From positions 390,135 to 454,134 of the forward strand of contig CBDBEO010000001.1 of the NCBI GenBank assembly GCA_965204455.1: 64,000 nt of DNA, written 5' to 3'. Below are positions 21,118 through 32,716 of this stretch, piece by piece. How positions within the stretch are numbered: the stretch's first letter is position 1; every line of letters begins with the position of its first letter. The notes beneath the pieces were generated by a model. It was given only the letters and a program-made list of their open reading frames with translations. It was not told the origin of the DNA and did no database searches. The DNA is from an uncultured Candidatus Binatia bacterium. GTDB taxonomy: Bacteria > Desulfobacterota > Binatia > Bin18. The translations under genes and the position numbers were made by a program.

Positions 21118-21191
21118 GCGCCCGTAGCTCAATTGGATAGAGCGCCGGGCTTCGAACCCGTCGGTTGGGTGTTCGAGTCACCCCGGGCGTG
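21118..21191 (+). tRNA. tRNA-Arg (anticodon UCG). The 3' CCA is not fully encoded (GCC then T).
   Basis: Cloverleaf read manually. Acceptor GCGCCCG/CGGGCGT (G1-U72 wobble). D-arm GCTC AATTGGATA GAGC. Anticodon arm CCGGG CTTCGAA CCCGT. T-arm GGGTG TTCGAGT CACCC. The D-loop resembles E. coli tRNA-Arg. Confidence 0.8.
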
Positions 21192-21223
21192 CCTTGTGTG
21201 ATGTCTGGCTAGCGGCTGTCATA

Positions 21224-27104: not shown

Positions 27105-27158
27105 ATGACTCCCTCCCTTCGGATATCGAATACGGACAAGAACGGCTGAGGCAAACAC

Positions 27159-27890
27159 TCAGGCTGCTAACAAGGCTTGCAGCACCGCGCGTAACTCCTC
27201 AGCCAGGGTGATCGTTTGCCGGGCCTGCCGGGTGGTGACTGCGGCATGGGCATCGTACCGTGCGCTGTTGCGGAACTGGAGCGCCTGATTCAGCCCGCGT
27301 CCCAGTTTTCGTTCGACCTTAGCCGTCTGGACATACATTTCGCCAAATTTTTGCACGAGACCGCCGTGCGTACGCGGCAATGGCTGTTGGTTCAGAATCA
27401 AGAGCCCCTTGACACATAATTCCGCAGCGTTGTAGCCCGCATCGACCGTTCCACGTAGCTGCTCGCCTTCGAGATCATAGCGGGCGAGATCGATATATTC
27501 CTCGGCCAGCCGCAGGGCGTTCTGTGCCCCTTTTCGGGCCAACTCATCCTCTGCCATGCTGTATACCTCTTCCCCTTCCCGGAGCGCTCGGGTCAGGAAA
27601 TACGAGTCGGTATAAAAAAGCGTATCGGCATCCCGAATGAGGGGCTCCACACTTTCCTGCTTTTCGATACCACTACACAGCGACGCTTCGGCGCAGGCTT
27701 CCGATACCTTGTCGAGCCTGTCGGTGGCGAAGACTAGCAGATCGATGTCGCTGTCAGCCCGAGCCTCTCCCCGGGCCAGGCTGCCAAAGAGCACTACTTT
27801 GGCAATAGCATCCTTGACCTCACTGCGACGCAGGTGGGTGATAAAGAAATCGAGCGCCTGTCTTTTTTTGAGGACGGCGTGTGGGTTCAT
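27159..27890 (-). CDS. Fused minimal nucleotidyltransferase (MNT) and HEPN-domain protein.
   Basis: N-terminus KVVLFGSLARGEARADSDIDLLVF (GS...D.D NTase motif). C-terminus YNAAELCVKGLLILNQQPLPRTHGGLVQKFGEMY...LQFRNSARYDAHA (HEPN-like, R..H region). Overlaps the fbp stop by 4 nt and lies immediately upstream of fba. Confidence 0.7.
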   Translation of the reverse strand: MNPHAVLKKRQALDFFITHLRRSEVKDAIAKVVLFGSLARGEARADSDIDLLVFATDRLDKVSEACAEASLCSGIEKQESVEPLIRDADTLFYTDSYFLTRALREGEEVYSMAEDELARKGAQNALRLAEEYIDLARYDLEGEQLRGTVDAGYNAAELCVKGLLILNQQPLPRTHGGLVQKFGEMYVQTAKVERKLGRGLNQALQFRNSARYDAHAAVTTRQARQTITLAEELRAVLQALLAA

Positions 27891-28912
27891 GCCTGACGTG
27901 GTCTTGCCTGGTCTTCGTGGTAAAACGATTCTGCGGTCTGCACGTCCTGGGCGCTGCCGATGATCAGCGGCGTCCGTTGATGGAGGCTGTCGGGGACGAT
28001 ATCGCGGATGGGCTGGGTGCCGTCACTGGCCCGACCGCCGGCCTGTTCAACCACAAAGCCGAGCGGGGCGGCCTCGTACATGAGCCGCAGCTTGCCCCTG
28101 GCGTTCTTGGGGTCGGCCGGGTAGAGGAAGACGCCGCCCTTGAGCAGGGTGCGGTGAAAGTCGGCCACCAGGGAGCCGATATAGCGACCCGAGTAGGGCC
28201 GCTTGGTCTGGCTGTCGGTCTCTTGCAGATGGTCGATATAGGCGCGGGTCGGGGGGAACCAGGTATTGCGACGGCCCTCGTTGATGCTGTAGGTCGAACC
28301 GCGCTGCGGAATACGGATATGTTCGTGGGACAGCAGAAAGTCGCCAATGCTGCGGTCCAGGGTGAAGCCGTGCACGCCCTGGCCGGTGGTGTAGACCAGC
28401 GTCGTGCTGGGGCCGTACAGGGCGTAGCCGGCCGCCACCTGACCCCGACCGCGCAGATGCAGGGCGTCCACCAGCGCGGTGCCTTTTTTCCCCTCCGGGC
28501 GACGGTGGACCGAAAAGATAGAGCCGACCGTCACATTGACATCCAGGTTTGACGAGCCGTCGAGCGGATCGACAAAAATGACGTATTTGCCTTTGTCCTC
28601 GTTGCCCTGGATTGGGGTCGGATGCTCCATTTCCTCGGAGACCATCTCGGACACCAGCTGGCCGTCGGCAAAGGCGGCCAGGAAGGCATCGTTGCTGATC
28701 TGGTCGAGCTTTTGTTGGACTTCACCCTGGATATTGATCTCGCCCGAGGCGCCCAAGACGTCGACCAGGCCGGCCCGGCCGAGTTCTCGGGAGATTGTTT
28801 TGGCCGCAAACGCGATTTGCGACAACAGCATGGAGAACTCTCCGGTCGCGCCCGGATGCTCGCGCTGCTGCATCAACAGATAACGGGTCAGCGTGATGCT
28901 GCTACTCTCCAT
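27887..28912 (-). CDS. fbp: Fructose-1,6-bisphosphatase class 1.
   Basis: TRYLLMQQREHPGATGEFSMLLSQIAFAAK..., VDPLDGSSNLDVNV, YPADPKNARGKLRLMYEAAP. Confidence 0.95.
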   Translation of the reverse strand: MESSSITLTRYLLMQQREHPGATGEFSMLLSQIAFAAKTISRELGRAGLVDVLGASGEINIQGEVQQKLDQISNDAFLAAFADGQLVSEMVSEEMEHPTPIQGNEDKGKYVIFVDPLDGSSNLDVNVTVGSIFSVHRRPEGKKGTALVDALHLRGRGQVAAGYALYGPSTTLVYTTGQGVHGFTLDRSIGDFLLSHEHIRIPQRGSTYSINEGRRNTWFPPTRAYIDHLQETDSQTKRPYSGRYIGSLVADFHRTLLKGGVFLYPADPKNARGKLRLMYEAAPLGFVVEQAGGRASDGTQPIRDIVPDSLHQRTPLIIGSAQDVQTAESFYHEDQARPRQA

Positions 28913-28998: not shown

Positions 28999-29796
28999 TC
29001 AGGCCGATTGGGCCAGCTCGGCCAGCAGGCGGCGCGCCCGCGCGCCGTCGGCCGGCAGCTCAAGGGCGGCGTACAAGTCGGCCGCCTGGCTCAGATAGGC
29101 CCGGGCCGGGCGCTGAGCGTCGGTCTGACCGGTCCGCGCCAGAAACTCGCCCAGGGCCAGTGCGCTGTGCGCCTGGAAGGGACGGCTGTGCATCTGCTGG
29201 GCGTAGTCCAGGGCACGAACCAGATGGCTCCGGGCGGCCGGCCGGTCCGACGGCTCGCGCTGGGCCAGAATACGCCCCAGGACGCGGTGGGCCGAGTACA
29301 CAAACCAGCGGCTGTGGCTGTGCTCGGCTTCGACGAGGACAGCGGTGGCCACGCGCAGGGCTTCTTCGCCACGCCCCAGGCCGAGCAGGGCCTCGGCATA
29401 CCAGCTGCCGAGCAGCTCGGCGTACACGCCCTTCTGCTGCCAGCTTGTGGCCAGACTGGTGATGGACGGGCTTGGCGCCTGCCCGACCGCGCTCAGCAGG
29501 CCCGCGTATTCGTGGACGGCGCCGGCCATCAGCAGCGAGGCCGGGGCGCCGACCTCCCGCATCAGGTCTAAACCAGCGCTGGCTTCGCGCTCGGCCAGCT
29601 CGGCCTCACCCCGCAGGGCGTGCAACAGCGCCAAACCCCAGTGGGGCAGAGCCTGGGGCAGGTGACGCAGGTGTTGGCTGGCCACCGCCTTGGCCTGGCC
29701 CAACTGTCGAAAGCCTAGCGCCAGATCGCCCAAAAACCCGTGGCACAGTCCGGCCACGGCCAGACTGTGCGGAAAAAAATAAACGACGTTTTCCAT
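28999..29796 (-). pseudogene. C-terminal TPR/helical-repeat fragment of a large signal-transduction ATPase (cyclase/AAA/TPR family). Probably the 3' remnant of the gene whose 5' part is at 31271-32716.
   Basis: Ala/Leu-rich TPR-like repeats (ALLGLGRGEEALRVATAVLVEAEHSHSRWFVYSAHRVLGRIL...LALGEFLARTGQ). Its start codon lies in an AT-rich junction. An 8-bp repeat is shared with the 5' fragment. Confidence 0.5.
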
Positions 29797-29858
29797 TTCC
29801 CCGTTTTGCTAACTCTTGCAAGCGCCCCAAAATAAGGGAAATGGATATGGATACTGTC

Positions 29859-30383
29859 CTACTTTGCCCCGACTGCCGGGGCGGGTTTCCATAATTTATC
29901 CCCGTGGGTGCAGATCAAGAGGTCCGAGTCTGGGGGGCACTCCCCCCACAGGATGGGCTTATCGCCCAGCGTCTCGAACTGCTGCAACAGGCGGCGGAAG
30001 TCCCGAAAGAAATACGGGTCTTGCACGATAAAGTGTGGGGGGATCGTCGGCATGAACTCCGCGATCCTCGTGCGATTCTCGGGCATGCGGAGCAACACGT
30101 TTAGGGCCTCGATGAGAAACCACATGGCCACGGCCGAGTCCCCCTCAATGGCACGCTCAGACAGCCGGAAGAGCCTGTCGTCAAACGCCTTGCGTTCCCG
30201 TTCCTCTGCGCGGTCCAGGCGGGCCATTTCCTGCCAGTACTGATTGATCGCTCGGCGCCGGAGTTCCGTTCTCGCCTCCTCCGGCGTGAAGCGCGGGGCC
30301 TCTGGGGTGTCGCCCTGCGCACGTGCGGGGGGGCTGCTGATGAGGACAAGAGGGAGGACAACACAGGACACCAGACGGGACAT
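29859..30383 (-). CDS. Secreted hypothetical protein (174 aa) within the segment separating the two cyclase-gene fragments.
   Basis: Signal peptide MSRLVSCVVLPLVLISSPPARAQG. No family recognised. Confidence 0.45.
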   Translation of the reverse strand: MSRLVSCVVLPLVLISSPPARAQGDTPEAPRFTPEEARTELRRRAINQYWQEMARLDRAEERERKAFDDRLFRLSERAIEGDSAVAMWFLIEALNVLLRMPENRTRIAEFMPTIPPHFIVQDPYFFRDFRRLLQQFETLGDKPILWGECPPDSDLLICTHGDKLWKPAPAVGAK

Positions 30384-30751
30384 GGGCGGAACCCTTGGCC
30401 TTTCCCCGCCCAATGAGTAGAATACGGTCTTAGCCCAGCGCTGCCCGATCCACCTCATCGAGCGGTGTTGGGGCCCGCGCTGAAGTCGTTTGCCGCGGTT
30501 CAACGCGAGGCACGCCACCAGTTCTGTTCGCCCGGCGAGGGATGCCGGGCCGTATCGACCTCATAGCAACGATGTGAATGAGTCCTGCGCGTTCACCACG
30601 GCGCGGGTCATGACTCCCACACGTCAGGTGGCTGTTCTATTGGGCAGGCGACCCGACCCACGGATCGTTCCCAAAGGCCGATGGGGGACATCGTGACAGG
30701 ATGGGCGGGGAAGTGCAACCGCGCGGCTTGACACGGCCCCCACGGGGGGGA

Positions 30752-31211
30752 TTAGTCAGCGAGGAACAGAAACCGTTCCAGGAAGACCTGCACCGCCTTC
30801 CAGAGCTGGTCGTGGGGAAACTCCAGCACGGGCGTGGCCTCCGATGTCAGCGTCACGACAATGCGACATTGCAGCGCTTCCGCGTCCCACCGGGTCGTGA
30901 TCACCCCGGTCCTGGGCGGGTGCGGCGCCCCCGCTTCCGGGAGCACCGTGACCGCAATCGTGCCCGCCAGGGCGTCGTACTCGAACTGACAGGCTCCCAA
31001 ATCCCCCCGTCGCACTCTGGCAGGTGAGGCTCAGGTGGTGGGGGCCTTGCCGCGCTGGGGGCAGGGCATAGGTGATATCCAAGGCCGCCGTGCGTTCTTC
31101 CGCATTCGCGCGCTGGAGATCGACACTCACAATGGCGCGGAGGTCCGGCCAGAGCCGCTGCATGTCACACTTGGCCCGCTCGGCAATCCAGTTGGGACGG
31201 GTGATGCTCAT
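30752..31211 (-). pseudogene. Hypothetical ~150-aa protein gene split by a frameshift in a G6 homopolymer (plus-strand C6 at 31003-31008).
   Basis: The N-terminal part is in one frame (...LSLTCQSATGG) and the C-terminal part in another (GDLGACQFEYDALAGTIAVTV...). Adding one G restores a continuous ORF. Confidence 0.5.
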
Positions 31212-31270
31212 TGCACTCTTCTAGCAGAAATGCGTGCCCCAGACAGCACACCATTTTTTATTTTTCCGCG

Positions 31271-32716
31271 TCAGCTATTTTTTCCCCGGACAGGCAGGTG
31301 ATGAATCTCCGGCAGCAAGGAGTGCAGGAAATCCAGGCTCCGCCGATCAAGCCATTGCAGATCTTCGAGCAGGAAGGCCAGCGGCTGGCGACGGCTCTCA
31401 GCCACGATCTGGCGTTTGATCCCGGTTTCAACCTTGTGCAGCCGGGCTTCAAAAGGCAGGCAGGCGATTGCCGGCTCTTGACTCTCCACGCCCAGTAATT
31501 CGAGCAGCAAAGCCAGGAGCGCAGCGTCCGGGACGGCGTGCGTCGGCGTCAGGGTACGCAGGAGTTTTGTCCGATACGTGGCCGGGTCGTCCTGTTCACC
31601 GATCCGACAGTACTGCTTGAACATTTCGACCCAGGGCAGATAGGCCCGCGTTCTGCCATACGGAAAGGCGGCGCCTTCGATCAGCAGATAGTGGTGTTGC
31701 TGCAGCGTGGCTTTGAGTTCTGCCAGCAGACGCGATTTGCCCACCCCGGCCTCGCCGACCAGCGTGACAATCTGACCCTGGCCGCCCGCAGCCAAGGCGG
31801 CACGCTCGTCCAGTTGTTCGCGTTCGTGACTGCGTCCAACAAGCGGCGATAGGCCGTGGGCCGCCCGGCGTGAGCGGGTAGCGCTCGCGCCCAGCAGGGC
31901 GTAGGTGGCAAGCGGGCTGGAGACGCCTTTGACGCTGGTCCGCCCCTTGGCCTCGAAACGGAACCCGGCTCTGGTCAAGGCATAGGTCCGGGCCGTCACC
32001 AGGCTTGAACCGGGGGCGGCCAGCGATTCCATCCGGGCGGCCAGGCCGACGGCGTGACCCACGGCCGAGTAGTCCATGCACAAGTCGTCGCCAATGGTCC
32101 GCACGACCACCTCGCCGGTGTTGATGCCGACCCGGATCTGGAGCCCAATCCCGTGGCTGCGGCGAACCTCGGCCGCATAGCGACCGACCTGCTCATGCAT
32201 CTCCAGAGCGGTATGCAGGGCCCGCTGGGGATGATCTTCGAGGGCCAGGGGTGCGCCGAACAGGGCCATGATGCCGTCGCCCAGGATACGGTTGACCGTC
32301 CCTTCAAAGCGGTGCACGGCCTGCATCATGAGCTGCAGACACGGATCGAGCACGCGTTTGGCCTCTTCGGGATCGAGCCGCTCCATGATGTCCATCGAGC
32401 CTCTGATGTCGCTGAACAGAACGGTGACGATTTTGCGCTCGCCCTCAAGCGCGGTCCGGCCCGACAGAATACGCTCAGCCAGATGGTCCGGCGTATAGGC
32501 AAGAGGAGCCGGGCTGCTGCCGGTGGGGTGCGGGTGCAGGAGGGCGGGAGAGGCCGAGTCAACGCGGTCCAGGGACGCCCCGCACGTCCCACAAAACTTT
32601 TTCCCAGCCGGCACCTGGCTGCCGCAACTCGGGCATGCCAGGCTGAGGCGCGCGCCGCATTCTTCGCAGAACTGAATCCCGTCCCGATTGGCGGCCTTGC
32701 ATGTGCTGCACTGCAT
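31271..32716 (-). pseudogene. 5' fragment of a signalling protein. It has a double zinc ribbon, a class III adenylate/guanylate cyclase catalytic domain and the N-terminal half of an AAA (AAA_16-type) ATPase domain. It is truncated just after Walker B.
   Basis: CxxC pairs (CSTCKA...CEECGA...CPSCGS...CGTCGA). VTVLFSDIRGSMDIMERL...GDGIMALFGAP (cyclase homology domain). GEAGVGKSRLL (Walker A). LAFLLEDLQWLD (Walker B), then ...HHLPVRGKNS* inside an A-rich stretch. Confidence 0.6.

Follow-up and report, generated by a model that had tools for sequence, protein, structure and literature searches.

A fused MNT-HEPN gene between fbp and fba of a Candidatus Binatia bacterium: a member of a family recurrently placed between partner genes, with a predicted internal start

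The 64,000-nucleotide stretch of DNA analysed here (the window; contig CBDBEO010000001.1 of assembly GCA_965204455.1, positions 390,135 to 454,134 of the forward strand) carries, between the genes for fructose-1,6-bisphosphatase (fbp) and fructose-bisphosphate aldolase (fba), an open reading frame (ORF) in which a minimal nucleotidyltransferase (MNT) domain is fused to a HEPN domain. This gene is called X below. Its host is a Candidatus Binatia bacterium, exact and 97%-identical copies coming from Candidatus Binatia/Binatota assemblies. The explanation that we favour, tentatively and with somewhat less than even confidence, draws on sequence and on analogy with characterised systems: X would be a single-ORF MNT/HEPN module akin to type VII toxin-antitoxin systems, with a HEPN domain of the PF05168, AF0298-like class, which was acquired horizontally, without a promoter, and inserted between fbp and fba, and in which the MNT domain would silence the HEPN domain by nucleotidylation. 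Fused MNT-HEPN proteins as such are already known. What appears to be new is an always-fused AF0298-like subfamily with invariant residues of its own, an internal Shine-Dalgarno (SD) sequence and start codon that are conserved at synonymous sites, and a recurrent position between the partner genes of core operons.

The three genes are co-directional on the minus strand, in the order fbp, X, fba. The main features of the locus, in window coordinates, are the following:

28912 to 27887, minus strand: fbp, class 1 fructose-1,6-bisphosphatase (Pfam FBPase and FBPase_C; NCBIfam NF006778, 462 bits against a cut-off of 368)
27159 to 27890, minus strand: X, fused MNT-HEPN gene, full-length product of 243 aa (ORF read from 27890 to 27159; Pfam Polbeta and HEPN)
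27552 to 27815, minus strand: MNT domain of X (Pol-beta type), residues 26-113 (PF18765/PF01909)
27735 to 27785, minus strand: MNT catalytic motif G36-S37-x10-D48-x-D50, within GSLARGEARADSDIDLL (residues 36-52)
27180 to 27518, minus strand: HEPN domain of X (PF05168, AF0298-like), residues 125-237 (Pfam, Foldseek)
27366 to 27368, 27270 to 27272, 27258 to 27260 and 27255 to 27257, minus strand: the conserved HEPN residues H175, R207, R211 and Y212, respectively
27105 to 27158, minus strand: X-fba spacer of 54 nt, with a strong SD sequence for fba, AAGGGAGGGAG, and, immediately behind the X stop codon, a weak hairpin of 5 bp
27104 to 26181, minus strand: fba, class I (DhnA-type) fructose-bisphosphate aldolase, 307 aa (Pfam DeoC; NCBIfam NF006704, 511 bits against a cut-off of 277)

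Both halves of X score above the Pfam cut-offs, and the 243-residue MNT-HEPN fusion between fbp and fba that an earlier sequence-only reading of this DNA had proposed therefore stands. The N-terminal half matches Polbeta/NTP_transf_2 over residues 26-113 (E 1e-10), with 42 bits for PF18765 against a cut-off of 26.9 and 39 bits for PF01909 against a cut-off of 21. The C-terminal half is confirmed as HEPN by PF05168 (residues 125-237, E 5.6e-13, 49.5 bits against a cut-off of 22); this is its sole HEPN match, the DUF86 HepT model PF01934 giving none for X at E<=1. Conservation was read from two alignments, one of 28 database homologues and one of 80 genomic copies. The MNT motif hG[GS]x9-13Dh[DE]h is present as F35-G36-S37-x10-D48-I-D50-L, with S47, D48 and D50 found in all 80 genomic copies and G36 in 79, and a third carboxylate, E82, lies in strand 81-87 of the structural model and is kept in 72 of the 80. 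On the HEPN side, R146, D150, N154, E157 and K161 are invariant and line the same face of a helix; N154, E157 and K161 belonged to the pattern by which the family was searched, and are also invariant in the independent alignment of 28 homologues. Further along, H175 and R207 occur in 78/80 copies each, and R211 and Y212 in every copy.

The dyad of canonical HEPN RNases, Rx4-6H at the end of helix 3, is absent from X. The sequence at this place is R207-N-S-A-R211-Y212, with Tyr212 at the position of the His in 80/80 copies, and the sole His that follows an Arg in the motif region, H215, is retained in only 27/80. For AF0298-like members of PF05168 it has been described that the motif His is missing and that an alternative, strongly conserved His is provided by an insert between helices 2 and 3 (PMC3710099). 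In the AlphaFold2 model of X (pLDDT 95.8), H175 begins a short helix (residues 175-187) that is inserted between helices 2 and 3 of the HEPN domain, helix 3 itself ending in the R...RY motif; as judged from the model and the alignments, the arrangement of H175 and R207 fits that description. X has the defining features of an MNT and of an AF0298-type PF05168 HEPN.

Fold comparison with Foldseek matched the HEPN half to AF0298 (2hsb; TMt 0.85, root-mean-square deviation (rmsd) 2.9 Å) and to TT1696 (1ufb; TMt 0.77), and the MNT half to MntA (7bxo); the MNT profile also matches MntA 5yep. The closest solved relatives by profile are both chains of a two-gene complex of a nucleotidyltransferase (NTase) and a HEPN protein, 9xbd (E 5e-12 for the NTase, 3e-10 for HEPN), in which the HEPN segment LRNRSDYD aligns to RNSARYD of X and the His of SSHSA aligns with H175; the companion entry 9xbc has Phe at the corresponding Tyr. 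A literature search found no publication for PDB entries 9xbd and 9xbc. Against the PADLOC models of anti-phage defence systems X gave only generic, domain-level matches, both to candidate systems: its MNT half to PDC-S09 (E 3e-12) and its HEPN half to PDC-M05B (E 4e-5). The HalB model reached 26 bits against a cut-off of 190.

The same comparisons bear on another explanation, which is a serious one even if we consider it rather unlikely, namely that X is a domesticated housekeeping modifier or repair enzyme resembling kanamycin nucleotidyltransferase (KNTase) or GlnE. The HEPN half would then be a dead substrate-binding domain, and the enzyme would nucleotidylate a small molecule, e.g. a sugar or sugar phosphate hydroxyl in the manner of the aminoglycoside nucleotidyltransferases (ANT enzymes) acting on aminoglycosides, or another protein, for instance a metabolic enzyme. 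Over its whole chain X is indeed matched best, in fold, by two-domain ANT enzymes, AAD(9), ANT(3'')(9), ANT(4') and LinB, and HEPN domains fused to MNT, usually without RNase residues, gave rise to GlnE and KNTase (PMC3710099). The polar stripe R146-D150-N154-E157-K161, invariant in the family and absent from the two-gene complex 9xbd, is also what such an enzyme might show. However, these whole-chain superpositions are poor (template-modelling score (TM) 0.33-0.36, rmsd 12-15 Å), the NCBIfam models of ANT families reach 11-19 bits where 193-587 are required, and an hhalign comparison with KNTase, for which an approximate query sequence was used, aligned the NTase motif only. An equivalence of E157 and K161 to E145 and K149 of KNTase was considered and is no more than a lead, the alignment to the approximate KNTase sequence being confined to the NTase motif.

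A feature that is hard to explain with a mere substrate-binding domain is a conserved internal start for the HEPN half alone. It consists of two elements at the boundary of the two domains:

27566 to 27575, minus strand: internal SD-like sequence GGGGAAGAGG, with the core GAGG at 27569-27566, 8 nt before the ATG of codon 112
27557 to 27555, minus strand: internal start codon Met112 at the MNT/HEPN boundary, predicted product M112-A243 of 132 aa (27557 to 27159)

Codon 112 is ATG in 73, GTG in 5 and GTA in 1 of 80 copies. A GGAG or GAGG lies 5-15 nt before it in 68 of 74 copies, compared with 10.5% at other positions and with 23 of 259 other internal ATG codons. The bias is seen at the level of single codons: GAG is the codon for Glu108 in 64/70 copies, the background being 52% (p=1e-12), while two control Glu codons, those of the invariant Glu82 (GAG in 26/67) and of Glu157 (30/75), are free of such a bias, and at position 107, where the residue itself varies (K, E, Q, R, V, M, L, W), the codon ends in G in 67/75 copies against a background of 31% (p=9e-26). 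The family consensus AAG GAG GTN TAY NNN ATG amounts to a near-perfect SD sequence 8 nt before a start codon. Its conservation, and that of ATG or GTG at codon 112, extends to synonymous sites and holds for bacterial and archaeal members alike (loci L002-L087 at the corresponding position); a divergent branch (P0049-P0051) is without Met112. The full-length start, by comparison, has an SD motif in only 8-18 of 73 copies and often abuts the stop codon of the upstream gene. When X is aligned to 9xbd, Met112 comes after the free NTase chain has ended and before the free HEPN chain begins. The conserved SD sequence and start thus predict a nested HEPN-only product of 132 aa that holds the complete HEPN domain.

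With these elements the following model can be proposed for the toxin-antitoxin-like module that we favour. X would be transcribed from the fbp promoter, and full-length MNT-HEPN would be made through coupling to fbp translation at a level that is expected to be low, its own start rarely having an SD sequence, and the 132-aa HEPN-only protein would be made in larger amount from the strong internal start at Met112. Using ATP, the MNT domain would nucleotidylate the invariant Tyr212, which sits where canonical HEPN RNases have their catalytic His, both on the HEPN domain of the same chain and on free HEPN subunits. The modification may keep the RNA-binding or RNA-cleaving site of a HEPN dimer switched off as long as ATP is available, and its loss, be it by ATP depletion, by removal of AMP or by loss of the full-length protein, would release HEPN activity on RNA. 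The gluconeogenic position would then say only where a cassette without a promoter of its own can find expression and be tolerated. Such chemistry has precedents: MntA enzymes AMPylate a Tyr beside the HEPN motif and so neutralise the HEPN RNase, and a fused form self-oligoAMPylates (PMC7641770, PMC13000451). Nucleotidylation of Tyr had been predicted earlier for HEPN domains associated with MNT (PMC3710099).

The likeness of X to type VII HepT/MntA systems (Shewanella SO_3166/SO_3165, the HEPN/MNT pair of Aphanizomenon, HEPN-MNT of Legionella) lies in the pairing of an MNT with a HEPN, MNT first, and in a conserved Tyr at the HEPN motif, which in HepT/MntA is the AMPylation site of a catalytic antitoxin. 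Those systems, however, consist of two genes with a DUF86-type HEPN and an Rx4HxY motif and reside on mobile islands, whereas X is one ORF with a PF05168, AF0298-like HEPN, the sequence R-N-x-A-R-Y and no motif His, and its family sits inside core operons. Closer in architecture is FhepTA (SO_1440 of the Shewanella prophage CP4So), likewise one polypeptide with an N-terminal MNT and a C-terminal HEPN (PMC13000451), and the fusion itself is therefore less unusual than the sequence-only reading had supposed; fusions to MNT are also listed for the PF05168 HEPN family (PMC3710099). FhepTA self-oligoAMPylates a Tyr near its HEPN motif (PMC13000451), and by analogy a similar mechanism may operate in X. 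FhepTA differs from X in its DUF86-type RφxxxH motif and its regulatory cysteines; it is borne on prophages and islands, has near-identical two-gene counterparts and, according to its authors, is without an internal ribosome-binding site and ATG for the HEPN part (PMC13000451); the X family keeps its internal SD and ATG, is fused in 87 of 87 loci and lies between housekeeping genes. The AF0298/UPF0332 HEPN proteins (PF05168; 2hsb, 1ufb and 9xbd, with separate MNT partners) share with X the HEPN sub-class, the His in the insert between helices 2 and 3 and an RNxxxY motif, but the solved examples are free-standing HEPN proteins that have neither the R146-D150-N154-E157-K161 stripe nor the second Arg (R211) of the X family. 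Finally, the ANT enzymes (KNTase ANT(4'), AAD(9), ANT(3'')(9), LinB) and GlnE/GlnD resemble X in having a Pol-beta NTase followed by a helical, HEPN-related domain in one chain; they differ in that their helical domains come from other Pfam families (PF07827, PF08335), lack R...RY and serve enzymes acting on small molecules or on glutamine synthetase.

A scan of genome assemblies, one genome per species, gave 102 loci matching the family, and an exhaustive profile search gave 152 clusters at E<=1e-30. The distribution is patchy. Most loci are in Chloroflexota (Anaerolineae), frequently with 2-3 copies per genome, and the others are in Deltaproteobacteria/Thermodesulfobacteriota, NC10, Bipolaricaulota, Clostridia and several archaeal groups. 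This patchy spread over bacteria and archaea, the multiple copies per genome and the occurrence of some copies beside MNT/HEPN genes or Cas6 speak for a toxin-antitoxin-like module. All 87 loci examined were continuous, fused MNT-HEPN matches. An all-against-all profile search had pointed to two-gene versions of the subfamily, in the form of "HEPN-only" entries of about 130 aa that start at Met112 and "MNT-only" entries of about 140 aa, and these were not upheld: of the apparent split entries inspected, one (L168, 440-1130) is a frameshifted fused gene and the other (L169, 1-483) a fused gene truncated by a contig end, for which the gene caller had picked the internal Met of the cut gene and so produced a "HEPN-only" entry. 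Counts of two-gene MNT/HEPN systems from metagenomic protein catalogues may be inflated by gene-calling artefacts of this kind.

Neighbours of the family members were compared by all-against-all clustering, Pfam and tblastn probes. The copies recurrently lie between two co-directional genes that are functional partners, in contexts such as these:

GAPDH, X, PGK: nine loci from Anaerolineae/Thermoflexales metagenome-assembled genomes (L021, L027, L029, L030, L052, L054, L062, L068, L073)
MiaB-like radical-SAM, X, HIT: eight loci (L053, L055, L063, L064, L069, L082, L083, L086)
GDP-mannose dehydratase (gmd), X, phosphomannomutase (pmm): seven loci
NuoL, X, NuoM of complex I: L032 and L049 (5001-5700)
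Aconitase-family large subunit, X, small subunit (leuC/leuD-like): L012, X at 1723-2418
ParA, X, GyrA-ParB: L006
ABC permease, X, FGGY sugar kinase: L078

Further upstream in the GAPDH-PGK loci there is mostly a YvcK/CofD-like "gluconeogenesis factor" gene. In L012, L032 and L049 the start codon of the downstream gene is within a few bases of the X stop codon. The HIT-family nucleotide hydrolase may serve to reverse the modification made by a putative AMPylating module next to it, or may simply belong to another split pair of old neighbours, and a few copies adjoin Cas6 or additional MNT/HEPN genes. The pairs gap-pgk, leuC-leuD and nuoL-nuoM are normally immediate neighbours; direct evidence of adjacency in this analysis concerns fbp and fba only.

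In a neighbour-joining tree each genomic context forms a separate clade. The Binatia copies group with copies from unrelated contexts (SMC/IF-2B-like and ParA-GyrA), apart from the gap-pgk copies, which make up a paralogous clade and represent a second, independent placement in a glycolysis/gluconeogenesis gene pair. A special link of X to the central-metabolism operon, which the sequence-only reading had suggested, is not borne out, as the same family is found in many unrelated housekeeping operons; from the tree and contexts, the gluconeogenic placement is best described as one case of a family habit and gives no pointer to a role in gluconeogenesis. A literature search found nothing on MNT-HEPN genes embedded in glycolytic operons.

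It is conceivable, though we regard it as improbable, that X acts as an operon-specific regulator that tunes the expression ratio or the enzyme activities of fbp and fba, and elsewhere of gap and pgk, for example by HEPN processing of the polycistronic mRNA or by an ATP-responsive AMPylation of the neighbouring enzymes. Two independent placements in glycolysis/gluconeogenesis (fbp-fba in Binatia and gap-pgk in the nine Anaerolineae loci) are in keeping with this, and X is packed tightly against its neighbours, which suggests co-expression. However, the relatives nearest to the Binatia clade are in the unrelated SMC/IF-2B-like and ParA-X-GyrA-ParB contexts, and a gluconeogenesis link was therefore rejected as the main explanation; in addition, ten relatives have fbp-fba without X, and the two glycolytic placements fall in separate tree clades. 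Genes of sugar-phosphate metabolism do recur among the neighbours, which we regard as suggestive but unproven; a rough, post-hoc estimate puts chance co-occurrence at about 0.03 over about 45 independent contexts. The contexts also bear on a KNTase- or GlnE-like modifier: they are conserved, vertically inherited and housekeeping in character, several of them concern sugar phosphates (fbp-fba, gap-pgk, gmd-pmm and a position upstream of an FGGY kinase), and X is under purifying selection; yet the range from nuoL-nuoM and leuC-leuD-like genes to parA-gyrA and Cas6 is too diverse for a single metabolic substrate.

The order fbp-X-fba was seen only in Binatia relatives (L001-L004, L008 and L009), the closest of which (L002, L003, L008 and L009) have copies of X that are 74-97% identical to that of the window. 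A metagenome scan probed with the aldolase returned 80 loci, and in ten of these, with fba 77-90% identical, fbp is directly upstream at a spacing of 35-105 nt (L088-L091, L094, L096, L097, L100, L103 and L104), with no copy of X within 4 kb. As to whether related fbp-fba operons contain the gene, the closest Binatia relatives do and these ten do not. Since at least ten relatives have a bare fbp-fba pair, the ancestral state was fbp-fba, and X, a lineage-specific insertion, came in later, immediately behind the fbp stop codon. Since then X has been under purifying selection and has been inherited vertically with its flanking genes: synonymous divergence (dS) is alike for X, fbp and fba (about 0.5 to L002 and about 2 to L003), and the ratio of non-synonymous to synonymous divergence (dN/dS) is 0.08-0.17 for X, 0.04-0.10 for fbp and 0.02-0.04 for fba. 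Both a domesticated or regulatory gene and a selfish element locked into an operon, the two possibilities raised by the sequence-only reading, fit this combination of purifying selection and co-inheritance. Searches for traces of the insertion gave no meaningful direct or inverted repeats flanking X, no target-site duplication or terminal repeats, no sequence motif shared by the X boundaries across contexts, no tRNA or Rfam element near X and no transposase or integrase within 5 kb.

That X is an inert passenger or the decaying remnant of a mobile toxin-antitoxin system is by far the least credible explanation. The G+C content of X is slightly below that of its flanks (0.57-0.60 against 0.62-0.65) and X is missing from most relatives, as might be expected of a remnant; but a dN/dS of 0.08-0.17 over dS values of up to about 2 largely refutes this idea, the catalytic and motif residues are invariant across 80 members, and none of the four Binatia relatives at species level has a disrupted ORF.

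Several points weigh against the toxin-antitoxin-like module that we favour. The canonical Rx4-6H dyad is missing, AF0298-like HEPN domains are RNases by prediction only, and it has been argued that a HEPN domain, when fused to MNT, as a rule binds substrate and is catalytically dead (PMC3710099). The MntA equivalog NF047752 (MntA_antitoxin) gives 35.1 bits, below its cut-off of 60. Stable, syntenic housekeeping contexts resemble those of a domesticated gene more than a typical toxin-antitoxin locus, and Anaerolineae genomes have up to three paralogues, each in its own conserved site and without a transposase or integrase nearby. Use of the internal start, finally, is a prediction from sequence conservation.

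A bolder proposal, which we put forward as speculative and on balance unlikely, is that the family constitutes a distinct promoter-less element of a "one ORF, two products" type, with a weakly initiated full-length chain and a strongly initiated free HEPN, that spreads by lodging between the partner genes of essential, constitutively expressed operons (fbp-fba, gap-pgk, leuC-leuD-like, nuoL-nuoM, gmd-pmm) and in this way ties its expression, and perhaps an addictive or defensive action, to core metabolism.

The junctions of X with its neighbours differ in part from the earlier description. The X stop codon had been said to overlap the fbp start; the reverse is the case, the fbp stop codon TGA (27889-27887) overlapping the ATG of X in a 4-nt ATGA, and this in the window strain only. 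In L009, the 97%-identical locus, fbp ends 24 nt before the X start, and the two genes are 3 nt apart in L002 and L003. The ATGA overlap is a strain-specific feature that arose because the window strain lost the fbp stop codon of its relatives (27887-27916; CAC TGA in L009, CAC GAA here), which adds nine C-terminal codons to fbp (341 aa against 332 aa in relatives). The distance from X to fba is 54 nt rather than 55, and the spacer is kept in L002 and L009. A terminator scan between X and fba gave only the weak 5-bp hairpin, the number of hits of the scan being that expected by chance.

Upstream of fbp, the window differs from L009 in a 1130-aa gene with zinc-ribbon, adenylate-cyclase, AAA_16 and TPR domains, which is intact in L009. 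Residues 1-476 are encoded at 32716-31289 of the window and residues 876-1130 at 29766-29002, and the middle of the gene (29767-31288 of the window, against 1927-3125 of L009) has given way to about 1.5 kb of unrelated sequence containing an ORF of 219 aa (29859-30518, minus strand) with a signal-peptide-like N-terminus. The window copy is a structural variant or gene disruption, lying about 90 nt or more upstream of the fbp promoter region. On the other side, about 130 nt without a counterpart in L009 (25320-25451) mark a break in the alignment between a 116-aa ORF and a GT2 glycosyltransferase gene. The sole RNA gene detected in the window is a tRNA-Arg(TCG) at 21118-21193, about 6 kb from the X locus.

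For annotation, the family is a warning that operon context may be a poor guide to function, as the gluconeogenic neighbourhood says little about the X protein. If the nested start is used, X would represent a new way to set the stoichiometry of toxin to antitoxin from a single ORF, and, as a single gene with two products, would be simple to study experimentally. That copies have lodged repeatedly and independently between partner genes may point to a real mechanism of targeting or retention, or else to the survivorship of promoter-less genes in places where they are expressed, and which of the two applies matters for how operons tolerate foreign insertions.

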